The notes beneath the pieces are model-generated. The model saw nothing but the letters and a program-made list of their open reading frames with translations. It made no database searches and had not been told where the DNA came from. The position numbers and the translations under genes were made by a program. DNA of 64,000 nucleotides from Candidatus Shapirobacteria bacterium. Its GTDB lineage: Bacteria; Patescibacteriota; Microgenomatia; UBA12405. The DNA lies in the NCBI GenBank assembly GCA_018062705.1, contig JAGORQ010000003.1:2270-66269 (forward strand). The letters are read 5' to 3'. Shown here piece by piece: positions 4,765-19,942 of this stretch (the stretch's first letter is position 1; the number at the start of each line of letters is the position of its first letter).

Positions 4765-4968
4765 TTACTCAAACTCCCTTTGCGCTTTCTCCAGCTCAAT
4801 CAACATTTTCTCATTAACTCCTTTTAATAAATTCTTTAAATACTCAAAATCAAGCACACCAAACTTCACCTTGCCTCTCACACTAATCAACCTATACTTT
4901 TCTTTTTTAACCTTACCTAAGGTAACTGCCAAATTACTTCTCAATTTTGTACTACTAACAATATTCAT
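4765..4968 (-). CDS. Phd/YefM-family antitoxin-like protein (apparently orphan)
   Basis: 67 aa, pattern S.T.LRSNL...V.....LISVRGK..FGVL.FEYL typical of Phd/YefM. Confidence 0.45.
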   Translation of the reverse strand: MNIVSSTKLRSNLAVTLGKVKKEKYRLISVRGKVKFGVLDFEYLKNLLKGVNEKMLIELEKAQREFE

Positions 4969-5035
4969 ATGTACATAACAAATGTACAGTTAATAATGGT
5001 CAACCCGTCCCGTAACAAGTCACAAGCAACACCAA

Positions 5036-5734
5036 CTATTCACTAATTTTATGTGCATCCCAATCAAAATCTCCCGTCTGCATTTTCACTTCAAAAGCAT
5101 TCTCTGGTTGTTTGAACCCTTTTAAATGTATTTCTACAACTGAAGGACTGTGCCTCTTCCTTGTACCATATACATTAGAAGTATCTACTCCTTGAGCAAC
5201 TTTTGCAGTAACAAAACTACACCCTCTAAAATTTATTTCATCAGCCGTACCACCAGCAAATCCTTTCGACAGAATTACCTGACCAGGATCACCACTAGCA
5301 TGTATCACCATCGGATTGTTAGTGAACGTATCTGCCACCATCACCCAATCTTCACCATTTCCCAACTTTGTCATTACTTCATCATTCAAAGGTGTTTGAT
5401 ACAAAACTCTAGCTGCCTCCTGATCGGTGTTACCCATATCACCACCACCTTTTCTCGTCATACCCATCTCTTTACCAACAAATAATGCTAAATCATATAC
5501 CGCTCTCGCATATCCACTAGTATCTCCAGCTTCTTGAGCATTGGTTATTAAACCATTTAATCTTTCATACTCTCCTACAATCGACACTTCTCCTATCCTG
5601 ATACCAGGCGAATCGGGCAAAGATATACCAGTTCTAATAGTTTTATCACCAAATCTGGCAATAAATTTCTGCTTATCAAAACCCTGAGCTGATGTATTAA
5701 CTGCGTCGTGCAAATCTCGAAGATTGTCAAACAT
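5036..5734 (-). CDS. hypothetical protein
   Basis: 232-aa ORF between nrdR and secE, no recognised motif. Confidence 0.45.
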   Translation of the reverse strand: MFDNLRDLHDAVNTSAQGFDKQKFIARFGDKTIRTGISLPDSPGIRIGEVSIVGEYERLNGLITNAQEAGDTSGYARAVYDLALFVGKEMGMTRKGGGDMGNTDQEAARVLYQTPLNDEVMTKLGNGEDWVMVADTFTNNPMVIHASGDPGQVILSKGFAGGTADEINFRGCSFVTAKVAQGVDTSNVYGTRKRHSPSVVEIHLKGFKQPENAFEVKMQTGDFDWDAHKISE

Positions 5735-5813
5735 TTATATTATTAACAATTATTACCCAAATTCTACCAAATTTATCGATTTATTAACAACGATATATAA
5801 GGTACAATACCTC

Positions 5814-6095
5814 ATGCGTCAAATCGTTAAGTTTCTCTCTGAAGTCAGAGCCGAATTTAAAAATATAACTTGGCCTTCTCGACAGTCTTTAATTCAGCTC
5901 ACATTTGTGGTAATATCAATCTCCATCATCATCTCCCTGATTTTAGGGGGTTTCGATTATATTTTTACTCAATCAATCGCCCTTTTGGGCCAAAATAAAC
6001 AAACCGTAGCACCAACTGTTATCAGCACTGCTACCCCCACCCCCGACAAATTTCCACCAATTCTTCCTACAACCAAGCCAACAATTAAAAAATAA
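5814..6095 (+). CDS. secE: preprotein translocase subunit SecE (track ORF starts 5724; ATG at 5814 more plausible)
   Basis: KFLSEVRAEFKNITWPSR + TM helix; immediately upstream of nusG; C-terminal Pro/Thr-rich extension. Confidence 0.7.
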   Translation: MRQIVKFLSEVRAEFKNITWPSRQSLIQLTFVVISISIIISLILGGFDYIFTQSIALLGQNKQTVAPTVISTATPTPDKFPPILPTTKPTIKK

Positions 6096-6096
6096 T

Positions 6097-6693
6097 ATGC
6101 CAAATAACTCTACTAAGACCAAAAACAAAGACTACTTATTCAAACTCTCTCCTCTCGAACCTTCCTTTGATGCTGCCTGGTATGTCCTCAATACCTATTC
6201 TGGTCACGAATACAAAGTTATTGATGCTCTAAAAATCCGTATCAAAACCATGGGTTTGGAAGATCAAATTTTTCAAGCCATTGTCCCAATTCAATCCAAA
6301 ATGGTTATCCGCCGTGGTCAAAAAGTCAAAACCCAAGAAAAAACTTTCCCCGGTTATGTCTTAATCCAAATGGCTCTCAATGATGATTCCTGGATCACTG
6401 TTCGCACCACCCAAGGTGTCACTGGCTTTATCGGTATTGAAAATCAGCCCACTCCCATTTCCCAGGCTGAAGTTGATGTCATTATCAAAGGTGTCGTTGA
6501 AGACAAGCCCAAATTCCAAACTCCGTTTGCTCAGGGCGATGTCGTCAAAATCACCAATGGTCCCTTTACCGACTACATTGGTACTATTGATACTATCGAT
6601 CAAGAACGTGGCCGTCTTCGTGTTCTCGTCTCTTTCTTCGAGCGCGAAACCCCAGTTGAACTTGATTTCTTGCAAGTAACCAAAGAGCTTTAA
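6097..6693 (+). CDS. nusG: transcription termination/antitermination factor NusG
   Basis: NGN and KOW regions (VVKITNGPFTDYIGTI), conserved synteny secE-nusG-rplK. Confidence 0.9.
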   Translation: MPNNSTKTKNKDYLFKLSPLEPSFDAAWYVLNTYSGHEYKVIDALKIRIKTMGLEDQIFQAIVPIQSKMVIRRGQKVKTQEKTFPGYVLIQMALNDDSWITVRTTQGVTGFIGIENQPTPISQAEVDVIIKGVVEDKPKFQTPFAQGDVVKITNGPFTDYIGTIDTIDQERGRLRVLVSFFERETPVELDFLQVTKEL

Positions 6694-6696
6694 TCT

Positions 6697-7053
6697 ATGC
6701 CCGGATTTAATCGAAAAAAAGGTGAGATTATCAATATATTCGCCACCTCTGTCGCTCAAAAAATTACTGAAGGCAATGCTTTTAGACGAACCGATCTTGG
6801 GGAAATATGGACAAGTACCTTCGCACCTCTTTGTGGTGAGGTCGGCAACGGCACACCACTAGCAATTTTGGAAACTAAAGTTCGAACTAAGTATTACGAG
6901 TTAAATAAACATAATCTAGCAACAAGGCGCACTCACGACGGATTTGTCACTTACGACCCAACAATAAGTGCCAGTCAAGTAGCTTTCGAACAGATACAGC
7001 ATAACTCCTCGGCAGAAAAAACCCAAGCTCGTCTAAAAAACAAACAAGGTTGA
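6697..7053 (+). CDS. hypothetical protein inserted between nusG and rplK
   Basis: 118-aa ORF starting 3 nt after nusG stop; no known motif; atypical position. Confidence 0.3.
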   Translation: MPGFNRKKGEIINIFATSVAQKITEGNAFRRTDLGEIWTSTFAPLCGEVGNGTPLAILETKVRTKYYELNKHNLATRRTHDGFVTYDPTISASQVAFEQIQHNSSAEKTQARLKNKQG

Positions 7054-7157
7054 TTCGATTCCTAGACTTTTACCGCAATTTATTAGATAATACCAACATT
7101 CCTCAAGCTCTGTCGTGAACCAGAGGCTTCACTTTAGGACTATAAATTTTTCAAACT

Positions 7158-7583
7158 ATGGCAAAAAAAATAAAAACAGTTGTTAAGCTCGCTCTCCAGG
7201 CCGGCATGGCCAATCCCGCTCCTCCAGTTGGTACTGCTCTCGGTCCTCAAGGTATCAAAATCATGGATTTCTGCAACGAATTCAACGAACGCACCAAAGA
7301 CATGAAAGGTTCTTTGATTCCTGCTTTAATCACTATTTACGAGGATAGATCTTTTGATTTCATCATCAAAAAACCACCAGTTTCTGACATGATCAAAAAA
7401 ATTACCGGTATCACCAAAGGTTCTGGTACCACCGGTCGTGAGAAAATCGGCATAATTACCCAAGACCAAATCACCAAGGTCGCTACCGACAAAATGTCCG
7501 ATTTAAATACCCAAGACATTGAGGCCGCCAAGCGCATGGTCACCGGCACCGCCCGCTCCATGGGTTTTGAGATTGTTGGTTAA
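7158..7583 (+). CDS. rplK: 50S ribosomal protein L11
   Basis: MAKKI...GMANPAPPVGTALGPQGI... canonical L11. Confidence 0.95.
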   Translation: MAKKIKTVVKLALQAGMANPAPPVGTALGPQGIKIMDFCNEFNERTKDMKGSLIPALITIYEDRSFDFIIKKPPVSDMIKKITGITKGSGTTGREKIGIITQDQITKVATDKMSDLNTQDIEAAKRMVTGTARSMGFEIVG

Positions 7584-7600
7584 TCAATTTAAAAATCCTT

Positions 7601-7891
7601 ATGGAAACAACCAAGGGATTTAGAGAAAACTACAAACACCTCTTTGAGGGCTCCCAAACAAGTTTACCTGAACGATCGAATAATTTAGAGTGTCATTTTA
7701 CCCCTGGAGGTGTCACTACTTGCTGTGAAAATGCCGGTCATGAATACCTCGTAGAGCCAATGCCTCAAGGCAGGATGGGGCTAACTAAATTACCAACAAT
7801 CATCGGCTTTAAAGGGACATGTGTTCCTGGTTGCAGTTCCTGTCGAGTAACCGGCAATGAAAATATGCAAGATAAGTTTTTTAGAGATTAA
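7601..7891 (+). CDS. small Cys-containing hypothetical protein
   Basis: 96-aa ORF with CC, CxxGC, CSSC motifs between rplK and rplA. Confidence 0.3.
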   Translation: METTKGFRENYKHLFEGSQTSLPERSNNLECHFTPGGVTTCCENAGHEYLVEPMPQGRMGLTKLPTIIGFKGTCVPGCSSCRVTGNENMQDKFFRD

Positions 7892-7899
7892 CTTTCCAT

Positions 7900-8154
7900 A
7901 TGCCAAAAGGCTTGCCAGAACTAAATCCAGCTACTGAAACAAGATATTCACACCTTACAGTTGTCGAGGTTGACGAAGTCACCGATGGGACAGCTAAGTT
8001 TAATAGCTACGGTTTGGGTTGTGACCTGTTGGGTGAAGGTTGTCGAAGGCTAAGTCATGTAGTTCCTATAACAACCGCCGACGGTTTAATCGTACCAATT
8101 GCCCGTTTTTCGTCATGCAAAAAATGTATTGAATACGGAATAAACAGGAAATAA
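7900..8154 (+). CDS. small Cys-containing hypothetical protein
   Basis: 84-aa ORF with GCDLLGEGC and CKKC motifs, follows previous ORF by 8 nt. Confidence 0.3.
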   Translation: MPKGLPELNPATETRYSHLTVVEVDEVTDGTAKFNSYGLGCDLLGEGCRRLSHVVPITTADGLIVPIARFSSCKKCIEYGINRK

Positions 8155-8201
8155 CCAACGGTTATCTGTTATAATTACCCACTTATAATTTTCCAAATCA
8201 T

Positions 8202-8963
8202 ATGAGCAAAACCTCACAAGAAAACAAAAAGAAAAAGCTTGTTGTGGAAGATCAAGTAATTGATCACAAGGCTTCAGAATCCGTCGAAGAAACTGGAGTA
8301 AATCCCGAAATCGTTAATGAGGAGACCGTTTCCGCCGAAGGCGGATCCGCCTCTGGCGGAAAAAGAACTGCCAAAGTTCGCGGCAAAAAATATCAAACCG
8401 CCAAGAAAAAGGTTGACGTAGCCAAATTTTACCCCATCAAAGACGCTGCCAAATTGGTCAAAGAAACTTCTTTCTCCAAATTTGAAGGCAAAATCGAAGC
8501 TCACATCACTGTGACCGAAGAGGGTAACTTAGGTGAAATTGTCTTCCCCCACCTCGAAACAGCCAGCAAAAAAATCGTCATCTTAAACGATGCTATTTTG
8601 GCTGAAATCAAAGACGGTAAAGTCGATTTTGATATTCTTATCGCCACTCCCGCCACCATGCCCAAGCTTTTACCTTTTGCCAAGGTTCTTGGTCCCAAAG
8701 GTTTAATGCCCAATCCCAAGAGTGGCACCTTAACCGACAAACCCGAAGAAGCTGTCAAAAAGCTGTCAGTAGCCAAAACCATGATCAAAACCGAGAAAAA
8801 AGCTCCGGTTGTTCATATCATTGTTGGAAAAGTTTCCCAACCGGTCGAAGAGCTCAGTGCCAATGTGGCTGAACTCATCAAGGTTGTCAAACCAATTCGT
8901 ATCAAAAAATTGGCTCTTTGTGCCACCATGGGCCCATCAGTCAAAGTCGAGGTCCTAAAATAA
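8202..8963 (+). CDS. rplA: 50S ribosomal protein L1 (with about 65-aa Lys/Glu-rich N-terminal extension)
   Basis: Conserved L1 core from about residue 70 (FEGKIEAHITV...KVLGPKGLMPNPKSGT). Confidence 0.9.
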   Translation: MSKTSQENKKKKLVVEDQVIDHKASESVEETGVNPEIVNEETVSAEGGSASGGKRTAKVRGKKYQTAKKKVDVAKFYPIKDAAKLVKETSFSKFEGKIEAHITVTEEGNLGEIVFPHLETASKKIVILNDAILAEIKDGKVDFDILIATPATMPKLLPFAKVLGPKGLMPNPKSGTLTDKPEEAVKKLSVAKTMIKTEKKAPVVHIIVGKVSQPVEELSANVAELIKVVKPIRIKKLALCATMGPSVKVEVLK

Positions 8964-8966
8964 CAA

Positions 8967-8990
8967 GTCATTCCTGCGAAGGCAGGAATC
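8967..8990. repeat. GC hairpin element GTCATTCCTGCGAAGGCAGGAATC (family B copy)
   Basis: Near-identical copies at 4602-4625 and 45557-45580, variant at 1056-1075. Confidence 0.7.
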
Positions 8991-9006
8991 TATTTAAATT
9001 TTCAAT

Positions 9007-9034
9007 CCCCCTCCCCCGAGGGGGATTTTTATTT
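9007..9034 (+). terminator. rho-independent terminator after rplA
   Basis: CCCCCTC-cccc-GAGGGGG hairpin followed by T-run. Confidence 0.7.
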
Positions 9035-9037
9035 CCC

Positions 9038-9086
9038 TTGACACCCCAACATAGTTATGTTATCATATACATATTCGTATATGATA
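9038..9086 (+). promoter_or_regulatory. sigma70-like promoter (TTGACA-N17-TATCAT) overlapping 10-bp palindrome TATCATATAC-N6-GTATATGATA (putative AbiEi operator)
   Basis: Exact -35, 17-nt spacer, near-consensus -10; perfect inverted repeat spans -10 and start region. Confidence 0.5.
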
Positions 9087-9620
9087 AACAAACTATCCAT
9101 TTTACTTCAGCAACCACAAAAGATCTTCCACACCGCCGACCTTCGCATTTTGTGGGGTATTTACAACCAGAACACTCTCCGTCAAACTGTTAGCCGTTAC
9201 ACCCAAAAAAAGTCTCTTTTTCGCATCTACAAAGGTGTTTACAGCACTATTGATCCCCAAAAACTCGACACTACCGAACTAGGCTACCGACTCTTTAATC
9301 GCTACTGTTATCTCACCACCGAGACTGTTTTGTCCCAAAACGGTCTAATCAATCATTCCCCTACCAAAATTACTTTTGTTTCCAGTCTTTCTCAAAATAT
9401 TATTCTCAATCAACACACTTTTCTCAGCCGTCAGCTCAAATCACAATATCTTCATAACACCGCAGGCATTACCCAACTACCAAACGGTGTCCTCATCGCC
9501 TCTTCCGCCCGAGCTGTTGCCGATCTACTATATTTCCAGCCCAACTTCCATTTTGATGCCGGTAGTATTATTAATTGGGACCAGGTTAAACAAATTCAAC
9601 AGGAGGTTTACTCACAATGA
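9057..9620 (+). CDS. AbiEi-family antitoxin / transcriptional regulator (alternative start at 9081)
   Basis: about 185 aa, ETVLSQNGLI motif like AbiEi; 4-bp overlap with downstream AbiEii-like gene. Confidence 0.5.
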   Translation: MLSYTYSYMINKLSILLQQPQKIFHTADLRILWGIYNQNTLRQTVSRYTQKKSLFRIYKGVYSTIDPQKLDTTELGYRLFNRYCYLTTETVLSQNGLINHSPTKITFVSSLSQNIILNQHTFLSRQLKSQYLHNTAGITQLPNGVLIASSARAVADLLYFQPNFHFDAGSIINWDQVKQIQQEVYSQ

Positions 9621-10348
9621 TTACCGTCAGACCAGAAGATGCAATTCACAAAGCCTATTTATTTCGAGTTCTTACGGAAATTATCGACAACCCCCTACTT
9701 TCCCAGTCACTCTATTTTAAAGGCGGCACCTGTGCCTCACTTATGGGAATTCTTGATCGTTTTTCTATAGATTTAGACTTTGATCAAAAACCAGGAGTAT
9801 CCGAAGCCAGACTTCGTACCGAATTTCACCAATTATTTAAAAAGAACGACCTAACTATTAGTCAAGAAAGCCAAAAAACTCTCGAATTTTTTGTTAAATA
9901 CCAAAATACCGCCAATCAACGTAATACTTTAAAAATTGATGCCTTAAATTTTCAGGTCAAATCAAACCGTTATGCCCCATTTTTTTTAGCTGAAATTAAT
10001 CGAACAATTAATTGCCAAACTTCCGAAACTATTTTTGCCAACAAATTAGTAGCTGTAACCGACAGATACATTTTGCACCAATCAATTGCCGGTCGTGATC
10101 TTTACGATATTCATCACTTTTTTATGAACAACTTGCGTTACCTACCAGAAATTATCATCGAGAGAACTAGTCTGTCGCCCAAAAAATATTTTGAAAAATT
10201 AATTAAATTTATTAACTCTAAAATAACTCAAACTTTAATTGATCAAGATCTCAATACCCTCCTACCAACCGATAAATTTAAAACCATCCGTCGCCACCTC
10301 AAATCCGAAACTATCATGTTTCTCCAAAACGAGTTGGCCAGACACTAA
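9617..10348 (+). CDS. AbiEii/AbiGii-family nucleotidyltransferase toxin (DUF1814)
   Basis: YFKGGTCASLMGILDRFSIDLDFD motif diagnostic of DUF1814 nucleotidyltransferases. Confidence 0.7.
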   Translation: MITVRPEDAIHKAYLFRVLTEIIDNPLLSQSLYFKGGTCASLMGILDRFSIDLDFDQKPGVSEARLRTEFHQLFKKNDLTISQESQKTLEFFVKYQNTANQRNTLKIDALNFQVKSNRYAPFFLAEINRTINCQTSETIFANKLVAVTDRYILHQSIAGRDLYDIHHFFMNNLRYLPEIIIERTSLSPKKYFEKLIKFINSKITQTLIDQDLNTLLPTDKFKTIRRHLKSETIMFLQNELARH

Positions 10349-10364
10349 AAATAATGTTGGCCTA

Positions 10365-11777
10365 TTACATCATTTTGGTTGTTAAGTTTAAGTCAATATC
10401 AGCCAAACTATCATAGTCACCAACTTTCAGTGCTTTATCCATTTGCTCAATAGAATCTTTTAAAAAACCATTGAACTCTTCATTTCGAACACCATCAAGT
10501 GACTTGTTTTCATATAATCTGGCAAACTTAAACCAATCCCCCCTAACTTCAGCGTAAAAGTTGTCCAAAAAATGTGTCGCCATACCGTCCAAGCCTTTAA
10601 TTATATCCATACCATCAGTTACAGACTCCGTTTCTCTGTATTTATTAACTGCCCCAATTATCGAATGATAACCTTCTTTTATAATTCCTGCTTGCGAAGT
10701 TCTTCCTGCATTCATTCTTTTAATAGCAATTTCCTCACCCCCCAATAAATCTTCCACACCAAATCCATAATGCATAATTAAAATATCAACAATATCTTTA
10801 TCAACCTCAAACACTTTTTCTTCAGATAGATTTACTTCAATCAATCCAAGTTCGAGAGCCCTATCTTTAACTATTTTCCACCCTTTCTTGTCTGCTTCCA
10901 AAACTCGTTTTTTATTTCTATCTACTGCCTGTTTATCTGTTAACCACCCCAAAAACCAAGTCTCAGCCTCCCAATCAACCTCTGTCTCGTGCCGAAACCT
11001 CTTCATCAAATCTGCTCCCAACATCTTTTTAAATAATGTCGAACCTTTTACTTCATCACATAACACCGAGTTGCCATCTCCACTATCCATATCCACCACT
11101 TCTGCAAACTTAATCATTTTTTCCCCCAACGTTCTAATTTCATAACCCTGCAATTCAGTGCTGGCTAACTTAGCTGCTTTTTCTGCTTTAATCATTTCAA
11201 CTTCTTTTTTCTGATTTAATACTTCTTCAAAATCATTTCGCCATTTCCATATAGATATCAACCCAGACCACTCAGGCAAAAGTATCGCCCCACTATAATC
11301 AACCATTTCCATATCCGTATCATTTTCAACCAAAATTGCATCGGTTTTAACATCGACCACCGCAATTCCTGCCATATGAGCTTCGGCTATTTTTAATTTC
11401 AAAAAATTTACCAATAGCCTTGCCATTTCCGGCTCGACATTGTCAGTCATAATATTTATAGGTTTTCCATTTTCTCTTGGAACAGCAACCCCCGCCACAC
11501 TAATATCAAAAACTTTCTTACGCAACCTAGTTATTGCCGCCCCTTCAGTTGCCACACCATCAATATCACTCAATTTTAAACCCGCTTTTACTACTAAATC
11601 ATGATTCTTATCATCCTCATGCGTAGAAGCCATAAATCCAGGTGTCCCCAACCTGTCACCTTTTGGATGTTCACTTCTAAAATCTGCTACATTCAAAACC
11701 CTAGGGTCACTCATTACACCAACACCTGCCTTTCTTGCGATTAATCCATCCCATTTTCCCATCCCTAAATATAGCAT
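10365..11777 (-). CDS. hypothetical protein (470 aa)
   Basis: Long ORF, no motif I can assign. Confidence 0.45.
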   Translation of the reverse strand: MLYLGMGKWDGLIARKAGVGVMSDPRVLNVADFRSEHPKGDRLGTPGFMASTHEDDKNHDLVVKAGLKLSDIDGVATEGAAITRLRKKVFDISVAGVAVPRENGKPINIMTDNVEPEMARLLVNFLKLKIAEAHMAGIAVVDVKTDAILVENDTDMEMVDYSGAILLPEWSGLISIWKWRNDFEEVLNQKKEVEMIKAEKAAKLASTELQGYEIRTLGEKMIKFAEVVDMDSGDGNSVLCDEVKGSTLFKKMLGADLMKRFRHETEVDWEAETWFLGWLTDKQAVDRNKKRVLEADKKGWKIVKDRALELGLIEVNLSEEKVFEVDKDIVDILIMHYGFGVEDLLGGEEIAIKRMNAGRTSQAGIIKEGYHSIIGAVNKYRETESVTDGMDIIKGLDGMATHFLDNFYAEVRGDWFKFARLYENKSLDGVRNEEFNGFLKDSIEQMDKALKVGDYDSLADIDLNLTTKMM

Positions 11778-11824
11778 GATTTATTTGCCATTTTTTTGTG
11801 CTATCATAACCTCTCTTTTCCAAC

Positions 11825-13192
11825 ATGTCCAACCCTCTCGCCCCTACATTTTGTGGCATTGATTTTGGCACTTCAAACTCGTCTGTATCTATTATCAGGT
11901 CTGGCATTCCCCAAGTTGTCCCGATCGATAAACACAGTCCTCACCCTCTCATTCTCCGCTCACTGATTTATCTCAATCCAGAACATCAACAATCAGTTGG
12001 CTATGATGCTATTAATCGATATCTAACCGATCTTTCCACTTTAAAATCAGTACCACTCAGACTGGTTGAAACAAGCAAAAAGGTCAAGGTCATGACTCCG
12101 ACTGGCAGTGGTGTCATGAAAGCCGACTGGGTCCCCGAAATTATCGAGGTCGACGACAGTGGTCGTGGTCGTCTGCTTCAATCTCTCAAATCTGTTTTAA
12201 CTAGTCAACTGTTCACCGGCACCAGCATTTTTGGCAAATTTTACACTCTAGAAGAGTTGTTGACTATTTTATTAACCGAAATTAAAACCCGCGCCGAAAC
12301 CGAACTAGACCATGAATTAACCTCGGCTGTTATTGGTCGACCAGTCCGCTACGTTGGTACGGCTGAAAACAAAATTGCCCTCGACCGCATGCATCAAATT
12401 GCCCTTAAATCCGGCTTTAAGCATGTTGAGTTTGAATATGAACCGGTTGGCGCTGCCCTCAACTACGGCATTAATATTACCGATAACCAAAATATTTTAG
12501 TCTACGATTTTGGTGGTGGCACCCTCGATGTTTGTATTATGAAACTCCCCGAGAAAAAAATAATTGCCGTTTCTGGTCGTGGCATTGGTGGTGACCTACT
12601 CGACTCTCGACTCGTCAAATCTCAACTACTTCACCACTTCGGTGCTGATACAGTTATCAATGGCAAATTCACTTTTCCTCGTCATTTTTTTTCCGCCTTT
12701 GACAGTTGGTACCAAACCACTCTCCAAAAAACGATTAAAAATATTGAATCTCTCCGCACCATGTCAATCCAGTCCAATAATCCTCCACTCATTAATAATC
12801 TCATCAGTCTGATTGAAAATGATTATGGTTTTGAGTTTTTTCAATCAGTCGACACCGCCAAAATATCTTTATCAGACAATGATTCCTACGATTTCAAATT
12901 CAAACGACCATCGCTTTACTTATCTCAAATTTTAAGTCGTGCCAACTTCGAATCATCAATCGAAACTGAACTAATCGAATCAGAAAAATGTATTTTTGAA
13001 TCAATTACTCAAGCCGGACTTACCCCAGCCACAGTCGATAAAGTTATTCTCACAGGTGGCTCCTCCCAAGTCCCCATGTTTATCAACCAAATAAGGCATA
13101 TTTTTGGAGCCGATAAAATAGTTACCTCCGACCATTTTACTTCCGTCGCCTCCGGCCTGGCCCTTCGGGCACAAAATCTGTTCTCAAATTAA
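11825..13192 (+). CDS. Hsp70-family ATPase-like protein (truncated, actin-fold)
   Basis: GIDFGTSNS phosphate-1 and DFGGGTLDV phosphate-2 motifs. Confidence 0.65.
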   Translation: MSNPLAPTFCGIDFGTSNSSVSIIRSGIPQVVPIDKHSPHPLILRSLIYLNPEHQQSVGYDAINRYLTDLSTLKSVPLRLVETSKKVKVMTPTGSGVMKADWVPEIIEVDDSGRGRLLQSLKSVLTSQLFTGTSIFGKFYTLEELLTILLTEIKTRAETELDHELTSAVIGRPVRYVGTAENKIALDRMHQIALKSGFKHVEFEYEPVGAALNYGINITDNQNILVYDFGGGTLDVCIMKLPEKKIIAVSGRGIGGDLLDSRLVKSQLLHHFGADTVINGKFTFPRHFFSAFDSWYQTTLQKTIKNIESLRTMSIQSNNPPLINNLISLIENDYGFEFFQSVDTAKISLSDNDSYDFKFKRPSLYLSQILSRANFESSIETELIESEKCIFESITQAGLTPATVDKVILTGGSSQVPMFINQIRHIFGADKIVTSDHFTSVASGLALRAQNLFSN

Positions 13193-13636
13193 CCCGTCTT
13201 CGATCAACTTCGGCACCAAAAACTTTTTGGTACTCTCCGACACTACCAAATCTTTATTCTCAAAATCTGCTCGCAAAAACCACCTCATTTCCCCAATTTC
13301 ACTCGCCAGTTTTATTTTTTCAATATCAATAGTTATCAAATAACAGTCAATTTGTTGCATCCCACCATCATTTTGCAACGGCGCTTGATATTCAATATAT
13401 TTACTAAAATTTAACAACTCAATCGACAACTCTTCCATCAACTCCCTCTTTAATGTCTCCAAATCAGACTCACCATCCTCCACTCTGCCTCCTGGTGTAA
13501 AATAAAAATCTTTATAAAATCCACTATTGCCCCGCACCAATAAAATCTTTTTGTCTTGAATAATCACCGCCGACACCCTTTTTCGCTTTATTTCCATTAT
13601 CCATATTATAATATAGCTAGTGAAAAAAACTCTCAC
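13184..13636 (-). CDS. NUDIX hydrolase
   Basis: Nudix box GGRVEDGESDLETLKRELMEELSI. Confidence 0.75.
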   Translation of the reverse strand: MRVFFTSYIIIWIMEIKRKRVSAVIIQDKKILLVRGNSGFYKDFYFTPGGRVEDGESDLETLKRELMEELSIELLNFSKYIEYQAPLQNDGGMQQIDCYLITIDIEKIKLASEIGEMRWFLRADFENKDLVVSESTKKFLVPKLIEDGLI

Positions 13637-14867
13637 ACTTCTTATCCTCCACTATTTTCGAGTACTAGCCAAAGTCCAAATTTCCAAGGTTAAGCTGCTT
13701 CAAAAAATCGAAGGCAAAACGCTAACCATTGTCGGCATTACTGGTTCGGCCGGTAAATCCTCCACCCTCTCTGCCTGCGAAGCTGTTCTTAAAGATTATT
13801 TTAATGTCAAAACTAATGGTGGTAGTAATTCTGAAACCGGCATTCCTTTTAGCATTCTCGGTATCAAGGCCACATCATACTCCCCAATAGACTGGCTAAA
13901 ATACACCTTACTCGCACTCATCAAACTCATAACTAACTGGCAATCATACGATATTTTTTTGCTTGAAATGGGCATTGACGAACCTGATGAACCCAAAAAC
14001 ATGTCCTACCTCCTAAAAATAGTCCGACCAACGATTGGTATTTTTCTCAATGTAAATTTAGTTCATTCACAGCAATTCGACAAAACTATATCCCAAAACA
14101 TCACTGGCGATCAAAGACAGCCATTAATTTTAAAAAACATCGGCCAAGAAAAAGCTAATCTAATTAACTCGCTTCCCTCAACTGGCCATGCTCTCATCAA
14201 TTCTCAGGATCCAATTGTTTCCTCGACCACTCAAATAACTCTTGCCAAAAAAACTGAACTCAAGCCAATCCATGTTGATCTAAAAAAATACGCTCCCCCA
14301 AAATCGTTTGACGTTTCTGTTTCTGCCGCTATCAATTTAGCCAACATTTTTAAAATAGATAAATCGAAGGCCATTCATTCACTCCAAAAAAACCTGGTTC
14401 TGCCACCTAGCCGGTCAAGTGTTTTTAAGGGGATTAGCAATTCCACCATTATTGATAGTAGCTATAACTCCTCCCCACTTGCCTGTTCCGAAATGCTCGA
14501 TGTGTTATCAAAATACCCCTCGCCCAAAATCGCCATTCTTGGTGATATGCGCGAGCTCGGTCTCCAATCAAAATCCGCTCACGAAAAAATTTACCAAAAA
14601 GCCCTCAAATCAGCCGACACGATAATTAGTGTTGGGGTTGAAACTAGACAATATTTTGGCGCCAAAGCCATCAAATTTACCGACTGGTCTGAAGCTAACG
14701 AATACATCAAACAGAATCTAAAGCCCAATTCCACTATACTTATCAAAGGTTCTCAAAACACCATTTACTTGGAAGAAATAGTTAAGTCACTTTTACAAAA
14801 TCCCGCCGACGCATCACTAATTTGTCGTCAATCCCCCTACTGGCAAAAAGTTAAGTCAACCCTCTAA
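13620..14867 (+). CDS. Mur ligase family protein (MurF-like)
   Basis: IVGITGSAGKSST ATP-binding motif of Mur ligases; GTG start. Confidence 0.6.
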   Translation: MKKTLTLLILHYFRVLAKVQISKVKLLQKIEGKTLTIVGITGSAGKSSTLSACEAVLKDYFNVKTNGGSNSETGIPFSILGIKATSYSPIDWLKYTLLALIKLITNWQSYDIFLLEMGIDEPDEPKNMSYLLKIVRPTIGIFLNVNLVHSQQFDKTISQNITGDQRQPLILKNIGQEKANLINSLPSTGHALINSQDPIVSSTTQITLAKKTELKPIHVDLKKYAPPKSFDVSVSAAINLANIFKIDKSKAIHSLQKNLVLPPSRSSVFKGISNSTIIDSSYNSSPLACSEMLDVLSKYPSPKIAILGDMRELGLQSKSAHEKIYQKALKSADTIISVGVETRQYFGAKAIKFTDWSEANEYIKQNLKPNSTILIKGSQNTIYLEEIVKSLLQNPADASLICRQSPYWQKVKSTL

Positions 14868-14969
14868 TTTTTTATCAAAAATCACCAAATTATCGGATAA
14901 TATGCTACAATAATTGCCTTTGGTGTTTGAAAACAAGACCAACACCTGGAATAATGATTACTGTCATAG

Positions 14970-15641
14970 ATGTTCAAAAATCTAAAAAAACAATTGTTTC
15001 CTAAAAACGAAAGTTTAGAATCAATCTTTCTTGAATACCCAAACGTCTTCAATTACTCTCCTACTGCCAGCATTCAGTATGCTACTAAAGCTTTCACTTA
15101 CATCAATCTAAATCTAGAAATTATTGCCTCCGACCCAAAAAAAAGACAAATCGTCGTTGATAAATTACTTTCTGAAACTAATAATTATTCCGATATTGAT
15201 TATATCTGCGGTATTGAAAGCGGCGGGTCTTACTTTGCCTCAGCAATAGCCGACAGACATCAAAAAAAACTAATTATGCTTCGTCGAAGAGAGAAAATTG
15301 AAAACAACAATCTCTCTCGCTTAGTTGGCCAGTTTCCACCTGCAGGAAGTCGCATATGCCTAATTGATGATGTACTGTCAACCGGCTTAACCTTATTCCA
15401 AGCCAAAAAATTTTTTACAGACATTGGTTGCTCGGTAATTGAAGCCAAAATTATATATAGTTACGGCTTCGAAAAAGCTATTAGTCGTGAGTTGGATCTT
15501 AAAATCAGTGTTATCTCAAATTATAACAACCTTATTAAGATTGCACTTGAAAAAAAGATACTCACCACAAAAGATACCCTAAAACTAAACCGATACATTA
15601 GCTCTTTCAAACAATACTTGACTCGAAAAAAGATTATTTAG
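14970..15641 (+). CDS. phosphoribosyltransferase family protein (type I PRTase)
   Basis: PRPP-binding motif ICLIDDVLSTGLT. Confidence 0.55.
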   Translation: MFKNLKKQLFPKNESLESIFLEYPNVFNYSPTASIQYATKAFTYINLNLEIIASDPKKRQIVVDKLLSETNNYSDIDYICGIESGGSYFASAIADRHQKKLIMLRRREKIENNNLSRLVGQFPPAGSRICLIDDVLSTGLTLFQAKKFFTDIGCSVIEAKIIYSYGFEKAISRELDLKISVISNYNNLIKIALEKKILTTKDTLKLNRYISSFKQYLTRKKII

Positions 15642-15643
15642 AA

Positions 15644-16219
15644 CTAGGTATAATCTTTATCTTTCTTCATTTCCTTTTCAATCAGATCCCGTAAAAATAC
15701 GGAGCGTGGGATCATTCTTTTCTTTGCCACCCAGTCCAAATAAGACAAAATTCTTGGGCTGACAAAAAAGTTGAAACGTACATCAATTATCTTTCTTGCT
15801 TGTTCCAATGCCTCCGTCAACTTTGGCATCAAATTTGATTCGTCATATTCAATCCAAATGACCTTATTATTCTGTATTCCAGTAAAAAGTATCGGCTCAT
15901 GGTCTGCTGTATGTAAAACAATTACCGGCTTTCCCTTTTCGAGAGCAACGGTAATTTCATGACCTATGTGTAAAGTTGAGGGGAAAGATGCTTCAAAAAC
16001 ACAGATATCAGCCTTTTCAATATTTTTCAACATCGTTCTGTATAGACCCAATCTATCATTCTTTGATAAAGAGCTGTATGCACCTGATGGTGATTTAAGT
16101 CTACCGTTGTCAGTAACTTTATATTCCGACTTAACCAACACTTTCATTATATTTTCATAGTTAACCCCAAACTTTTCTCGATAGGCTCTAGGTGCTGAAA
16201 AATATAGTTTCATAGCCAA
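15644..16219 (-). CDS. hypothetical protein, possible ribbon-helix-helix C-terminus
   Basis: C-terminal RSVFLRDLIEKEM resembles RHH antitoxin-like tails. Confidence 0.35.
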   Translation of the reverse strand: MAMKLYFSAPRAYREKFGVNYENIMKVLVKSEYKVTDNGRLKSPSGAYSSLSKNDRLGLYRTMLKNIEKADICVFEASFPSTLHIGHEITVALEKGKPVIVLHTADHEPILFTGIQNNKVIWIEYDESNLMPKLTEALEQARKIIDVRFNFFVSPRILSYLDWVAKKRMIPRSVFLRDLIEKEMKKDKDYT

Positions 16220-17245
16220 TTATCTCAAATTATCAGCAAAAAATCCAATATCCCTCTCCACCGCCTCTTTCCACCCCTTCGTCAAATTATGATCACTTCC
16301 TTCATACACATCCAGTGTGGCATCTTTATCCAGACTTTTTAATTTAGTTACCACTTTTTCCTGCCAACTAAGCTTGACCTGATCATCAATCGTCCCCTGC
16401 TGAATTAATATTGGCGCATTTATCCATTGATAATAATTTTCAAACGCATATCGCCGGGCATCATAATGCTTCTCAAAATCCTCCATTATTTGTTTTATTG
16501 GGCTATCAACATCAATGGTTGACAACACACTGTCCGGAAACGGTTGGGTCATTGGCGCCCACAATACAGCAGGATACTTTTCTCCAGTAATTTCCAACAC
16601 CGACAACACAATCTGCCCACCATTACTATGTGCCCAAATTCCAATTTTAGTTTTATCTACCCAGGGCAATTGCTTAACTGCATTAATTAAATCAAGTACT
16701 TCCGCCACTTTGTGAAATCTAGCCTCAAGTGGATCAATGGATTCTCCATCCGAATTTCCATATCCCAAAAAATCCAAACTAACCGTGGCATAACCTGCCT
16801 CAGCCAATTTGTCCGCTACTCGCCAACTCCCCGACCCCGGGTAATACCCCGCCTTTTCCGCATACCCCCGAACCATTATTATTACTGGCGTCAAGCTGTT
16901 TTTTTCAGGAAAATAATTGATCATTCCCGACACTTTTTTACCATCACTCTCAAAGCTAATTTCTCGTGTATCAAATTGACGGTCATACTTCAACTTTTGT
17001 TGCTTTCTCCGATCTTCTACAGGCTTTAAGTTTCCCAATATTTTAAAATTTCCTGCAGATTGCAGTTTGTAGATTGAAGATTGCCGTAGACTATCAAAAT
17101 CGTACCTCAGCAAACTTTGCTCAATCTTTTCTTTTTCTTCCCCCTTTGGATCCATCCACCCTCTCGGCCAAAAATAATACCCCACCGCCACCAATATGGT
17201 TGCCACTCCAATTCCTATTAACCATTTGCCTAAACTTTTTCTCAC
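16220..17245 (-). CDS. alpha/beta hydrolase (membrane-anchored)
   Basis: N-terminal TM helix, GIWAHSNGG nucleophile-elbow-like motif; in-frame heptamer insert at 17056-17085. Confidence 0.55.
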   Translation of the reverse strand: MRKSLGKWLIGIGVATILVAVGYYFWPRGWMDPKGEEKEKIEQSLLRYDFDSLRQSSIYKLQSAGNFKILGNLKPVEDRRKQQKLKYDRQFDTREISFESDGKKVSGMINYFPEKNSLTPVIIMVRGYAEKAGYYPGSGSWRVADKLAEAGYATVSLDFLGYGNSDGESIDPLEARFHKVAEVLDLINAVKQLPWVDKTKIGIWAHSNGGQIVLSVLEITGEKYPAVLWAPMTQPFPDSVLSTIDVDSPIKQIMEDFEKHYDARRYAFENYYQWINAPILIQQGTIDDQVKLSWQEKVVTKLKSLDKDATLDVYEGSDHNLTKGWKEAVERDIGFFADNLR

Positions 17246-17263
17246 TACTCATTTTACCCCAAA

Positions 17264-17626
17264 CTAATCTACCAGTTCTAATCCAGGCACTCGCTCAAAA
17301 TGTTTCCGATTTAATGTCCACAGTTTTCCTCTTCCTTCAACACAACTGCTAGCAATTAGTAGATCTTTTTCATCAATTGGACTTTGTCTTAATAGTATTT
17401 TTAATTTTGTATATATTCTAGCTGTTTGTAATCCTATATCTACCAAATTTACTTTATTTATCTTCAACCATATTTCCCAATCATCAAGGCTTTTTCCAAT
17501 TCGCAAAAACCCATACCCAACTTCAGCATAAACAGTTGCATTTATCCAATACTCATCTTTTTGATTCAACAAAATTCTCTCTTTTATTTTTTCTATAATT
17601 ACACAAGAGTCTAAAAATATTTTCAT
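17264..17626 (-). CDS. PIN-domain toxin (VapC-like)
   Basis: MKIFLDSCVII N-terminus, about 120 aa, 4-bp overlap with upstream Phd-like gene. Confidence 0.65.
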   Translation of the reverse strand: MKIFLDSCVIIEKIKERILLNQKDEYWINATVYAEVGYGFLRIGKSLDDWEIWLKINKVNLVDIGLQTARIYTKLKILLRQSPIDEKDLLIASSCVEGRGKLWTLNRKHFERVPGLELVD

Positions 17627-17853
17627 CTATCAAAATCCATTTTAAACGATTCTCTAAATTCTTTCATCCCTGCTTCGATTCCATCAATTTCTTCATCGGT
17701 CAAATTAAATTCATAGTCATTAAACACTGGTGAAATAATTACAGCCGGTTTTTTGCCCCGATTAACAGTCACCTTAATTCTTTTACTAATCACATCATCC
17801 ATTAGTTTTCCAAAGTTGTTTTTGGCATACGTCGCCGTTACTGTTGTCATCAT
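17623..17853 (-). CDS. Phd/YefM-family antitoxin
   Basis: TATYAKNNFGKLMDDV...VNRGKKPAVIIS pattern. Confidence 0.7.
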   Translation of the reverse strand: MMTTVTATYAKNNFGKLMDDVISKRIKVTVNRGKKPAVIISPVFNDYEFNLTDEEIDGIEAGMKEFRESFKMDFDR

Positions 17854-17883
17854 TAGCTATTTTAGCTAATTTAGCTAAAGCTG

Positions 17884-18159
17884 TCAAACAATTTTTGATT
17901 CTTTATCCATCCTCTCACTCAAATATATCTTCATCAGCGATTGGTAAGGTACATCTTTTTTATTGGCAGTTTGCTTAATTCTGGCCAACAAACTCACTGG
18001 CAACCTTAAAGAAATTGAGACAGTTGACGGTTTTAGGTTAGGGAAAATAGCTTTCTCTGCCTTTGACCAATCAACATAATCAGTCGAATCATGAGTCGCC
18101 CAAAAGTCTCTTTCCTCGTCTTCATTTTTAAATATTGGTATTTTCTTAAACTTTTTCAT
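17884..18159 (-). CDS. BrnA-family antitoxin
   Basis: FKNEDEERDFWATHDSTDYVDWSKA...ISLRLP...VPYQSLMKIYL signature. Confidence 0.75.
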   Translation of the reverse strand: MKKFKKIPIFKNEDEERDFWATHDSTDYVDWSKAEKAIFPNLKPSTVSISLRLPVSLLARIKQTANKKDVPYQSLMKIYLSERMDKESKIV

Positions 18160-18439
18160 AATTATTTTTCTCCTTTTTATTCATATCTCTAATAGAAATA
18201 ATTCTAATTTTTTCATCTCTTTTGGTAAAAGAGACAAAAAGCAACCGACTTTGATTTGTTTTTCCCAGACCTTTGTACCTTTGTTCTCTTTCTGAATGAA
18301 TAATGTCTAAAGCTATTATCAGAGGTTCATTACTAAAAACCTCCTCAGCCTCCTGATTAGTTACATTATGTCTAATAAAATTTTTATCAATATTTCCTTC
18401 ATCCCACTCAAATAATATAGGTTCAGGAATTATTTTCAT
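18146..18439 (-). CDS. BrnT-family toxin (DUF497)
   Basis: FEWDEGN...HNVTNQEAEEVF...IRIISIRD signature; overlaps BrnA start. Confidence 0.75.
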   Translation of the reverse strand: MKIIPEPILFEWDEGNIDKNFIRHNVTNQEAEEVFSNEPLIIALDIIHSEREQRYKGLGKTNQSRLLFVSFTKRDEKIRIISIRDMNKKEKNNYEKV

Positions 18440-18504
18440 TCTAAATTAGTATATTACTCCAATATACATTTGTCAATAAATCAAACTATTCCACTTTTTT
18501 CAAA

Positions 18505-18650
18505 ACTCTGTTATAATCACACCTGTCCTACCGAAGACAGCCGGTTTTCTGAAAAGATATAAATCCCGCCGAGGCCAAAACTAGATTCTTTTATCTACGC
18601 CTCGAATTTCGAGGCTATTTCGTTTTTAAATTTTAAATTTTTAAATTTAA
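18505..18650 (+). promoter_or_regulatory. putative rplJ leader with strong hairpin GCCTCGAATTTCGAGGC
   Basis: Structured region directly upstream of rplJ; perfect 8-bp stem at about 18600-18617. Confidence 0.3.
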
Positions 18651-18655
18651 TAAAA

Positions 18656-19174
18656 ATGCCATCTATCGCTAAAACAAAAAGTATCAACAAGGTTGATGAA
18701 GTTGTCGTCAAATTAACCGACTCCAAATCAGCTGCCCTAATCCAATATCAAGGTCTAACCGCTGCTGACGTCGCTTCCCTCCGTGCCAATGTCAAAAAAA
18801 CTGGTGGTGAGCTTGAAGTTGTCAAAAATACTCTTATTCACCGCGCCCTTCTCAAGCTCGGTATTTCTCTTCCCCAAACCCTAACTGGTCCCACCGCTAT
18901 TGCCTACAGCAATACCGACGAAATTGCTCCACTCAAGGAAATTGACTCTGTCAACAAAGCCAAAGAAAAAACCTTTTTCAAATACGGTATTTACGACAAA
19001 AAACTTTTGTCTGCTGACGAACTCAAAGCTTTCCTATCGCTTCCTTCTAAATCTACCCTCATTGCCCAACTTATTGGCGGTTTGAAGAATCCTCTTCAAA
19101 GAATGGTCTATGCCATGCGCTACAACCAAACCAAGCTGGTCATGACCCTTAAAGCCATATCGGAAAAAATTTAA
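18656..19174 (+). CDS. rplJ: 50S ribosomal protein L10
   Basis: Canonical L10 sequence, followed by rplL. Confidence 0.9.
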   Translation: MPSIAKTKSINKVDEVVVKLTDSKSAALIQYQGLTAADVASLRANVKKTGGELEVVKNTLIHRALLKLGISLPQTLTGPTAIAYSNTDEIAPLKEIDSVNKAKEKTFFKYGIYDKKLLSADELKAFLSLPSKSTLIAQLIGGLKNPLQRMVYAMRYNQTKLVMTLKAISEKI

Positions 19175-19333
19175 CCATTTAACCATTTTTCATTTATCAA
19201 AAAACCAAAATATCAAATCAATGATAAATGGTTCTCAAATATCCTTATATACACTGAGAAATTAAATTTCCTCTTTGAATAAGTTTATTCTAATAGTCTT
19301 TTATAAATTATTAATTAATTTTTTTATAAAAAT

Positions 19334-19711
19334 ATGGATAAAAAATTAGAAAAAATCCTAACCGACATTTCTGAACTTTCAGTTCTCGAATTGTCCGAAC
19401 TCGTTAAAGCTCTCGAAGAAAAATTCGATGTCAAAGCTGTCGCTATGGCTGCTGCTCCAGCCGCTGGTGCCGCCGCTGCCGCTCCTGTTGCCGAAGAGAA
19501 GACCGAATTTGATGTTGTCATCAGCAATGCTGGCACCAACAAAATCGCCGTCATCAAAGTCGTCCGCGAATTCAAACCAGAACTTGGTTTGAAAGAAGCT
19601 AAAGACATGGTTGATGCTGCTCCAGCCAACCTCGGTACCATGAAAAAAGACGCCGCCAACGATGCTAAGACCAAACTCGAAGCTGCAGGCGCCACCGTCG
19701 AACTCAAATAA
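19334..19711 (+). CDS. rplL: 50S ribosomal protein L7/L12
   Basis: Ala-rich hinge, C-terminal KEAKDMVD...AGATVELK. Confidence 0.95.
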
Positions 19712-19732
19712 GAGAAACATTTCTTTTAAACT

Positions 19733-19762
19733 AAAACCCCCGCCTCCGCGGGGGATTTTTTT
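19733..19762 (+). terminator. rho-independent terminator after rplL
   Basis: CCCCCGC-ctcc-GCGGGGG hairpin followed by T7. Confidence 0.75.
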
Positions 19763-19774
19763 ACAACACTCCAA

Positions 19775-19942
19775 TTACTCTCTTGCTTTATATTCAGCCT
19801 CTGTCCACAATTCAACCGACGAATAACACTTTGCATCACCATCTTTCGTGGTGACATAAACATCATTACCGTCAATACGACTAATAACACACCTTTTGAG
19901 CGTTGCCTTGTGATAAACGATATCACCTAAATTTAGATTCAT
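19775..19942 (-). CDS. small hypothetical protein (55 aa), below track size cutoff
   Basis: ATG..TAA minus-strand ORF MNLNLGDIVYHKATLKRC...; low-complexity-free. Confidence 0.25.
   Translation of the reverse strand: MNLNLGDIVYHKATLKRCVISRIDGNDVYVTTKDGDAKCYSSVELWTEAEYKARE

Follow-up and report, generated by a model that had tools for sequence, protein, structure and literature searches.

Background

The rplKAJL locus has been called widely conserved, and genes separate rplKA from rplJL in Bradyrhizobium diazoefficiens and Actinomyces israelii (PMC12993453). The toxin-antitoxin (TA) families considered here are well known and common in genomes from groundwater and from the candidate phyla radiation (CPR), and AbiE ranks with the most frequent defence families of metagenome-assembled genomes (MAGs) from groundwater (PMC12259885). 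This work concerns the interval between rplA and rplJ in a stretch of 64,000 nucleotides (the window, 64 kb) of contig JAGORQ010000003.1, which belongs to a MAG of Candidatus Shapirobacteria (CPR/Microgenomates; assembly GCA_018062705.1) and encodes the L1 protein KBC75_01315 of NCBI. An earlier reading of the sequence alone had interpreted this interval as a 9.6-kb accessory island with three TA systems, which splits a cluster that is contiguous in most bacteria and makes the secE-nusG-rplKAJL region an insertion hotspot. The comparison with related loci favours another interpretation. With a probability of roughly 0.78, the interval is a mosaic of an old, clade-wide gene backbone and of genes that this lineage gained in several small, separate events.

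Gene order between rplA and rplJ

The outer boundaries of the interval were reproduced: a terminator follows the end of rplA at 8963, rplJ starts at 18656, and 13 open reading frames (ORFs) lie between them. Genes were identified from an ORF listing and from Pfam, NCBIfam and PADLOC scans of the window ORFs. All genes named in the sequence-only reading reappeared, although a 191-aa ORF on the minus strand (orf191, 15644-16219) had been missed by it. For the comparison of loci, the flanks of L1 homologs with 65-78 % identity were combined with a metagenome scan that had the centrally placed MurF-like gene as its anchor, and at least 15 Shapirobacteria-like loci had enough flanking sequence to read the gene order.

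The order common to these loci is rplK, rplA, a variable stretch, the MurF-like gene (plus strand), orf191 (minus strand), a second variable stretch, the gene of an S9-type hydrolase (minus strand, in part of the loci), rplJ and rplL. In the loci L003, L083-L087 and L089-L108, the MurF-like gene, orf191 and the hydrolase gene are found between rplA and rplJ with their order and orientation unchanged, and their identities to the window genes are 46-70 %, 38-61 % and 48-65 %, respectively. The MurF-like gene was found between rplA and rplJ in 20 or more loci, and the hydrolase gene upstream of rplJ in L083, L085, L086, L090 and L105. A YegD-like Hsp70 gene, 59-60 % identical to that of the window, directly follows rplA in L091, L093 and L105. 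Many relatives carry genes for D-Ala-D-Ala ligase (ddl) and alanine racemase (alr) just 5' of murF and a HAD hydrolase gene after it. The presence of ddl and alr beside murF makes the MurF assignment plausible and marks the backbone as housekeeping. The distance from rplA to rplJ ranges from 2.5 kb (L101) to 9.9 kb (L085) in the relatives, compared with 9.7 kb in the window, and the L101 interval is reduced to rplA, murF, orf191 and rplJ. Given this minimal arrangement in relatives, the split between rplKA and rplJL predates this genome, and judging from gene order it is apparently ancestral to the Shapirobacteria-like clade.

Nine genes are specific to this genome, namely abiEi, abiEii, orf470, the genes of a NUDIX hydrolase and a phosphoribosyltransferase (PRTase), phd, the PIN toxin gene, brnA and brnT. 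None of them was found by tblastn in the interval of any relative among the readable loci. They are interleaved with the backbone at four or more separate junctions: abiEi-abiEii and orf470 follow the rplA terminator, the NUDIX gene occupies the place where relatives carry ddl and alr, the PRTase gene lies between murF and orf191, and phd-PIN and brnT-brnA stand between the hydrolase gene and the rplJ promoter. Where the window has the PRTase gene, the murF-to-orf191 gap measures 11-54 bp in nine relatives, including the one with the closest MurF (L088, 70 % identical). Relatives with the same genes between rplA and rplJ, which had been named beforehand as evidence against an insertion, were thus found in part, for the backbone genes.

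The relatives also differ among themselves. In L091 and L110, whose MurF proteins are 90 % identical, the presence of the yegD-like gene, ddl and alr between rplA and murF differs, and even housekeeping genes therefore relocate quickly in this part of the interval. The same two loci carry a PIN/MazE pair between rplA and murF, with identities of 70 % and 89 % compared with 79 % and 90 % for the backbone. Pair and backbone are thus conserved to a similar degree, which indicates vertical inheritance of the pair within this sub-lineage.

At L1 identities of 65-78 %, gene content varies at every junction of a 25-kb backbone that extends from NrdR to the dehydrogenase. As every surrounding junction is variable, the ribosomal cluster is not singled out as an insertion hotspot. 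Together with a second BrnT/BrnA pair that lies 5 kb downstream between two non-ribosomal genes, this leaves the hotspot claim weak.

A genome-collection scan anchored on L1, which used generic peptide patterns, served as a cross-phylum control; one Shapirobacteria locus was among the matches listed. Among these matches, the rplA-rplJ gap of Bacillota is mostly 180-430 bp, with a minority of 1.7-8.3 kb in some lactobacilli and Lachnospiraceae. In other CPR loci among them, the gap is often longer than 1 kb or rplJ was not found within 8-10 kb; the latter cases are soft, since the detection of a distant rplJ with tblastn is imperfect. The premise of a contiguous rplKAJL therefore holds for most of the non-CPR loci sampled in this way, but not for the Shapirobacteria-like clade, in which rplA and rplJ are already kilobases apart.

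Toxin-antitoxin modules

The three TA pairs that the sequence-only reading had recognised in the interval (AbiEi/AbiEii, Phd/PIN and BrnT/BrnA) are real and self-contained, and they are absent from every relative examined. In the AbiE pair, the antitoxin gene abiEi comes first (9057-9620, plus strand; PADLOC AbiEi, E-value 9.9e-27, with family matches beginning at residues 9-12). Its match to NCBIfam NF047376 (4.2e-12, 46 bits) is below the equivalog cutoff of 150. The toxin gene abiEii (9617-10348, plus strand) overlaps it by 4 nt and encodes a nucleotidyltransferase of the DUF1814 family (PF08843, 2.6e-18, 67.3 bits compared with a cutoff of 22.5; PADLOC AbiEii, 3.7e-23), the translation of which shows KGGT and DLD motifs. 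A search of viral contigs with AbiEii gave no match. A promoter and operator of its own had been proposed for this pair, and candidates for both are present: a promoter-like site (9038-9066, plus strand; TTGACA-17-TGtTATCAT, 11/12 match with TG) and, over its -10, a perfect 11-bp palindrome (9060-9087; TTATCATATAC-N6-GTATATGATAA). The ORF start at 9057 precedes the -10, and the true start of abiEi is therefore likely the ATG at 9081, 14 nt past the -10.

The gene of the PIN-domain (VapC-like) toxin (17264-17626, minus strand; PF01850, 1e-09, 39.5 bits compared with a cutoff of 23.6) overlaps that of the Phd/YefM antitoxin (17623-17853, minus strand; PF02604, 2.9e-09) by 4 nt. By eye, the acidic residues D6, E35 and D88 of the PIN domain are present and the fourth position is occupied by Asn (TLNRKHF). 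The fourth acidic position is the least conserved one in PIN domains. A promoter-like site precedes phd (17887-17859, minus strand; TTGACA-17-TAAAAT, 11/12 match), with the ATG 5 nt past the -10, and the promoter region (17853-17887) contains three copies of the palindrome TAGCTA at a spacing of about 9 bp.

In the third pair, the toxin gene brnT is first in the operon (18146-18439, minus strand; PF04365, 2.6e-23) and overlaps brnA, which encodes a CopG-type antitoxin (17884-18159, minus strand; PF12441, 8.5e-35), by 14 nt. Its promoter-like site (18476-18448, minus strand; TTGACA-17-TATACT, 11/12 match) has the inverted repeat GTATAT-N7-ATATAC over the -10, and the ATG follows 8 nt past the -10.

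Between 5000 and 20500, the three best sigma-70-like sites (11/12 matches) are precisely those in front of abiEi, phd and brnT, and a palindrome overlaps each of them. The combination of a near-consensus sigma-70 promoter with a palindrome suggests that each TA module is probably autonomous, autorepressed and leaderless or nearly so.

The second BrnT/BrnA pair (24446-25013, minus strand; family matches of 7e-21 and 6.8e-20), reported already in the sequence-only reading, was confirmed. It lies between genes for a 2-hydroxyacid dehydrogenase and a ManC-like protein, which are 2-22 bp apart in relatives. A recent duplication of the first pair is ruled out as its origin, as the two pairs are only 54-55 % identical. 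All four recognisable TA pairs of the window are located within 9-25 kb, and no further pair was recognised among ten small ORFs scanned at 26-64 kb. A solitary 67-aa ORF (4765-4968, minus strand) between orf232 and nrdR has a weak Phd/YefM match (E-value 0.005), and no toxin partner was recognised for it.

Mobility marks and composition

Integrase remnants or direct repeats at 9030 and 18650, which an inserted element might have left, were not found. Pfam, NCBIfam and PADLOC detected no integrase, recombinase or transposase among the 13 ORFs, and the repeats in 8800-18800 are short, imperfect and at chance level for AT-rich DNA. There is no tRNA gene beside the interval; those of the window are located only at 42.9 kb (42900) and 43.3 kb (43255), about 24 kb away. 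The nearest integrase-like fragment is at 59770-60192. Adjacent genes overlap or are 0-47 bp apart, except at both ends of the interval and at 14868-14969, and these extremely tight junctions leave no room for element remnants. Calculated from the ORF coordinates, intergenic DNA makes up about 5 % of 8964-18655.

The composition of the window is characterised by an extreme strand disparity. The GC skew of the plus strand is -0.13 to -0.45 throughout, about -0.3, with G at about 13-14 % and C at about 25 % of the bases, and this C-rich strand carries the rplKAJL genes. Composition therefore has to be tested strand by strand. The coding-strand GC skew at third codon positions (GC3 skew) is about -0.5 to -0.7 for plus-strand genes and +0.4 to +0.75 for minus-strand genes, and the inserted genes, with -0.56 to -0.62 and +0.42 to +0.75, respectively, resemble their neighbours. 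For 11 of the 13 genes, the values of GC content, third-position GC content (GC3) and strand-specific GC3 skew do not leave the range of the window. The only outliers, both in GC3, are the PIN gene (0.198, z -2.7) and the brnT gene of the first pair (BrnT1; 0.194, z -2.8), compared with a window mean of 0.371 and a standard deviation of 0.064. Apart from these two genes, the contrast in GC and codon usage with the flanks that an island might show was not observed. Since the genome-specific genes carry the strand-specific signature of the chromosome, their gain was probably not recent; the low GC3 may leave an older foreign origin possible for the PIN and BrnT1 toxins.

A C-over-G disparity across the whole chromosome has been described for the Microgenomates order UBA1400, in Ca. 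Chazhemtobacterium Ch65 (G 15 %, C 30 %), Collierbacteria and Beckwithbacteria, in a study that does not mention Shapirobacteria (PMC7143001). The homologous loci of the Shapirobacteria-like relatives (L003, L083-L107) show the same skew as the window, with values of -0.23 to -0.37, and other CPR lineages are without it.

Flanking genes and transcription-unit boundaries

The genes upstream of the interval are all on the plus strand. secE (5724-6095; PF00584, 1e-17) encodes 93 aa if the gene-caller start at 5814 is used, a length also called in L002, and nusG (6097-6693; PF02357, 2.1e-26) is 78-85 % identical in relatives. Neither tuf nor tRNA-Trp is found upstream of secE. rplK (7158-7583) matches PF03946 and PF00298, and rplA (8202-8963) matches PF00687 with residues 128-245 only. 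At its N-terminus, L1 is extended by about 55 aa rich in Lys and Glu. This clade-specific extension is also present in the homologs of 65-78 % identity, and its start, MSKTSQENK, is invariant or nearly so across 24 homologs. Two terminator-like hairpins on the plus strand (8970-8989 and 9004-9027) close the rplKA unit, the second with a 10-bp stem followed by TTTTATTT.

On the other side, the rplJ promoter (18489-18517, plus strand; TTCCAC-17-TGtTATAAT) stands back to back with the brnT promoter, and its -10 is invariant in an alignment of nine loci. It is followed by a ribosomal protein L10 leader (18513-18630, plus strand; RF00557, model positions 1-138), which scores 40.1 bits (E-value 0.0012), just under the gathering score of 44. 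The promoter and the leader are kept in nine relatives regardless of the gene upstream, and the insertions are therefore located at a true transcription-unit boundary. The abiE pair lies downstream of the rplA terminator, and both rplJ-proximal TA pairs are transcribed away from rplJ, toward the hydrolase gene. As the spacer upstream of the hydrolase gene is only 18 bp, this gene is now probably co-transcribed with the phd-PIN and brnTA pairs.

rplJ (18656-19174, plus strand; PF00466, 3.5e-19) and rplL (19334-19711, plus strand; Pfam scan) are followed by a bidirectional terminator 3' of rplL (19737-19754). The next gene is pyrG on the opposite strand and not rpoB, so that rplJL is unlinked from rpoBC.

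Other genes of the interval

orf470 (10365-11777, minus strand), found at this site only in this genome, is a near-orphan. It has no family match in Pfam, NCBIfam or PADLOC, and a full HMMER search of 1.84e9 representatives returned four remote homologs, the gene contexts of which are unrelated. A word-indexed search retrieved only orf470 itself, and viral contigs held no close relatives. A single-sequence AlphaFold model had a predicted local distance difference test score (pLDDT) of 32.7 and was unusable.

The YegD-like Hsp70-family ATPase (11825-13192, plus strand; NF008673, 2.5e-57, positions 2-449 of 450) is a patchy member of the backbone. Wedged between its gene and that of the MurF-like ligase is the NUDIX hydrolase gene (13184-13636, minus strand; PF00293, 2e-13); the candidate defence family PDC-S07 was rejected for it, as the match (1.8e-14) is that of a generic NUDIX domain. 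The MurF-like Mur ligase (13620-14867, plus strand), encoded by a conserved backbone gene, has the domains PF08245 and PF02875 and matches TIGR01143 with 3.1e-45 and 154.9 bits, compared with a cutoff of 288.6. The PRTase gene (14970-15641, plus strand; PF00156, 4.8e-11) is specific to this genome at the site.

The conserved backbone gene orf191 encodes a DNPH1/Rcl-like domain and a C-terminal ribbon-helix-helix (RHH). A profile of 15 homologs matches the structures 2klh and 4fyh of PDB, which are 2'-deoxynucleoside-5'-phosphate N-hydrolases, with an E-value of 3e-18. Nuc_deoxyrib_tr was found in 11 of the 15 family members, together with weak matches to RHH_1 and RHH_3, and the 45-residue C-terminal RHH is far more conserved than the N-terminal domain. 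Three tandem paralogs occur in L094 (12954-13535, 13532-14020) and L095 (5972-7113). An assignment of the PRTase gene and orf191 to the ShosTA system, in which the PRTase toxin ShosT shares an operon with a DprA-like ShosA, was rejected: the ShosT match reaches only 1.8e-4 over 56 model positions, and orf191 is convergent, DNPH1-like and conserved in relatives without the PRTase gene. The third conserved backbone gene (16220-17245, minus strand; PF00326, 4.3e-15) encodes the S9-type alpha/beta hydrolase, the translation of which begins with a hydrophobic stretch that is possibly a membrane segment.

Small ORFs in the rplKA operon

Three small ORFs on the plus strand lie between nusG, rplK and rplA. 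orf118 (6697-7053) starts 3 nt after nusG, and the annotated frame is its best coding frame; it has no Pfam match at E-values up to 1 and no tblastn match in relatives. orf96 (7601-7891) and orf84 (7900-8154) are located between rplK and rplA and encode small proteins with six and four Cys residues, the latter arranged as C-x6-C ... C-x2-C. None of the three has a Pfam match, and two of the three are rich in Cys. The sequence-only reading had regarded all of them as further insertions. Their positions were reproduced, but a closer relative (L115/L116; ENA ERZ724538/ERZ724522) has orf96 and orf84 conserved within the operon, and neither is an obvious insertion. The 54 C-terminal residues of rplK that L115 covers are about 93 % identical to those of the window.

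This relative has the identical order rplK-orf96-orf84-rplA (L115 184-738). Its orf96 homolog (P0125) is 74 % identical, with 17/15/30 differences at the three codon positions. orf84 and its ortholog in L115 differ in 17 synonymous and 7 non-synonymous codons, with 3/4/19 differences by position, a pattern like that of the adjacent C-terminus of rplK (3/2/14). Judging from these counts, purifying selection on orf84 apparently equals that on L11 in strength and orf96 is less constrained, and both evidently are genuine genes that belong to the rplKA operon of this sub-lineage.

Cys-rich ORFs of similar size occur at the same junctions in L083, L090, L094 and L105; they share a terminal C-x-x-C, but homology is not demonstrable. 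A profile search returned essentially the input sequences and one orf96 homolog. Leave-one-out hidden Markov models compared with shuffled sequences gave p-values of about 0.02-0.06 for five of the ORFs and 0.48 for one, so that a single clade-wide family of the small Cys-rich ORFs is unproven. An AlphaFold model of orf96 built from six sequences was unusable (pLDDT 38.5). The idea that orf84, and perhaps orf96, encodes a previously unrecognised zinc-binding protein of the ribosome or the stalk base in this lineage is a long shot. As a related long shot, the clade-wide position of ddl-alr-murF and the DNPH1-like/RHH gene between the operons of the stalk proteins might mean that the cell-wall and nucleotide-salvage genes are regulated in concert with translation.

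Elsewhere in the window

An AdoCbl-II riboswitch (545-623, minus strand) scores 41.3 bits, above the gathering score. It adjoins a 137-aa ORF of unknown function and lies upstream of a cluster with a cobalamin adenosyltransferase and a B12-dependent-type ribonucleotide reductase/NrdR. Just beyond the second BrnT/BrnA pair, 26103-27301 encodes an AEP-like primase (PF24387, 1.7e-16) and an excisionase-like ORF of the HTH_17/MerR type. Unknown ORFs extend from there to about 30.9 kb, and the region as a whole may be the remnant of an integrated element.

A bAvd-like protein, also known as 23S-rRNA-intervening-sequence protein, is encoded at 53507-53881 (PF05635, 3.7e-36). Around it (52569-58293) are five ORFs of 269-494 aa without a Pfam match, and ORFs with Big_1 domains are located at 58259-59136. 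The region may be the neighbourhood of a diversity-generating retroelement, and no reverse transcriptase was identified there. In 59770-64000, phage-integrase SAM-like fragments are present at either end of a 140-aa ORF, and the roughly 4 kb after it contain few long ORFs and have a higher GC content (0.44). No Rfam family was found in 59770-64000.

Discussion

In the mosaic interpretation, the boundary between the rplKA and rplJL operons of the clade has long been occupied by housekeeping genes, namely those of the MurF-like ligase, the DNPH1-like/RHH protein, the S9 hydrolase and sometimes the YegD-like ATPase. The TA modules would have arrived by recombination and not on an integrating element. 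They would have persisted through addiction, abortive-infection defence or both, and also through the tolerance of the inter-operon boundary to insertions.

Since the sequence derives from a metagenome bin, a chimeric contig joining unrelated fragments has to be considered, particularly as the central part (12073-17151) is outside the coverage of the Logan contigs retrieved. These independently assembled contigs of SRR11088367 match the window at 1-12072 and 17152-19913 with 100 % identity, and the outer junctions, rplA/abiE and brnT/rplJ, are both inside them. An artefact of the MAG contig is thus ruled out as the source of the join. In addition, the central MurF-like gene, orf191 and the hydrolase gene are exactly those that synteny predicts there, and the strand bias is uniform across the window, so that a mis-assembly is scarcely credible. 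The acquisition of a single 9.6-kb genomic or defence island, which would have split a contiguous rplKAJL in one horizontal event, is very unlikely. The density of three TA pairs within 9.6 kb, the short gap of 180-430 bp in most Bacillota loci among the matches listed and the low GC3 of PIN and BrnT1 are in line with such an event. However, 4 of the 13 genes (the MurF-like gene, orf191, the hydrolase gene and the yegD-like gene) are syntenic residents in relatives, the genome-specific genes are interleaved with these residents, an integrase, flanking repeats and a tRNA gene are lacking, and composition and strand bias match the chromosome. What remains of the accessory island are the three TA pairs, orf470, the NUDIX gene and the PRTase gene, which are specific to this genome.

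Alternatively, the whole interval including the TA pairs could be ancestral to a sub-lineage and its genes have been lost in the sampled relatives. All genes show the full strand-specific GC3 skew and the junctions are extremely tight. Loss or relocation of the yegD-like gene, ddl and alr is common, even between L091 and L110, where the PIN/MazE pair was inherited vertically. Nevertheless, none of the nine genes was found in the intervals of more than 15 relatives, so that many independent losses would be required; two toxin genes are compositional outliers, orf470 is almost without homologs anywhere, and TA modules are mobile. Differential loss is therefore unlikely. Several points weigh against the mosaic interpretation. 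The recombination route is pure inference. The nearest usable relatives are 65-78 % identical in L1, and at this distance gains in the lineage can neither be cleanly separated from repeated losses nor be dated. Old residents that relatives have lost would equally account for the tight packing, with overlaps or junctions of 0-18 bp, and for a strand bias that is fully matched, and the patchy occurrence of the yegD-like gene, ddl and alr implies that losses and moves are frequent here. Furthermore, the promoters, operators and leaderless starts of the TA modules are consensus matches only, and the PIN toxin may be weakened by the Asn at its fourth acidic position.

The main value of these results is a correction: the interruption of a textbook cluster represents a lineage-typical gene order with ordinary TA modules and not a mobile island. 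It implies that the supposedly universal secE-nusG-rplKAJL-rpoBC linkage is loose in CPR bacteria and that TA modules become established at operon boundaries with no integrase involved. Minor leads are the fusion of a DNPH1-like domain to an RHH, which is conserved, the small Cys proteins under selection in the rplKA operon, and the extension of the Microgenomates strand disparity to the Shapirobacteria-like clade.

Comparison with known systems

The finding as such is ordinary, as known TA families are placed at operon boundaries and a split between rplKA and rplJL has precedents. The AbiE pair resembles type IV AbiE systems in its gene order, its 4-nt overlap and the matches of both family models, and its putative promoter under an inverted repeat is what would be expected for autorepression by AbiEi. 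It differs in that its antitoxin scores far below the NCBIfam equivalog cutoff (46 compared with 150 bits). The abiE promoter of Streptococcus agalactiae carries a pair of longer repeats, and the putative operator of the window pair is one 11-bp palindrome.

The Phd/PIN pair shares with type II VapBC modules the small, overlapping antitoxin gene upstream and the promoter with palindromes. Unlike VapBC, it is a hybrid in which a Phd-type antitoxin accompanies the PIN toxin, and the latter appears to have Asn at the fourth acidic position. BrnT also precedes BrnA in the Brucella prototype, and the pair of the window corresponds to the BrnT/BrnA type II modules in domain content, sizes, overlapping bicistronic organisation with the toxin first and a palindrome at the promoter. 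The PIN and BrnT toxin genes deviate from usual type II modules by their unusually low GC3.

The strand composition resembles the disparity of UBA1400 (PMC7143001) in that C far exceeds G on the plus strand; in UBA1400 it extends over whole chromosomes, whereas the skew described here is known from 64 kb. The break between rplA and rplJ is at the same inter-operon boundary as in Bradyrhizobium and Actinomyces (PMC12993453). In contrast to those splits, the occupants here are a clade-conserved set, consisting of the genes of the MurF-like ligase, the DNPH1-like/RHH protein and the hydrolase, and rplJL is also separated from rpoBC.

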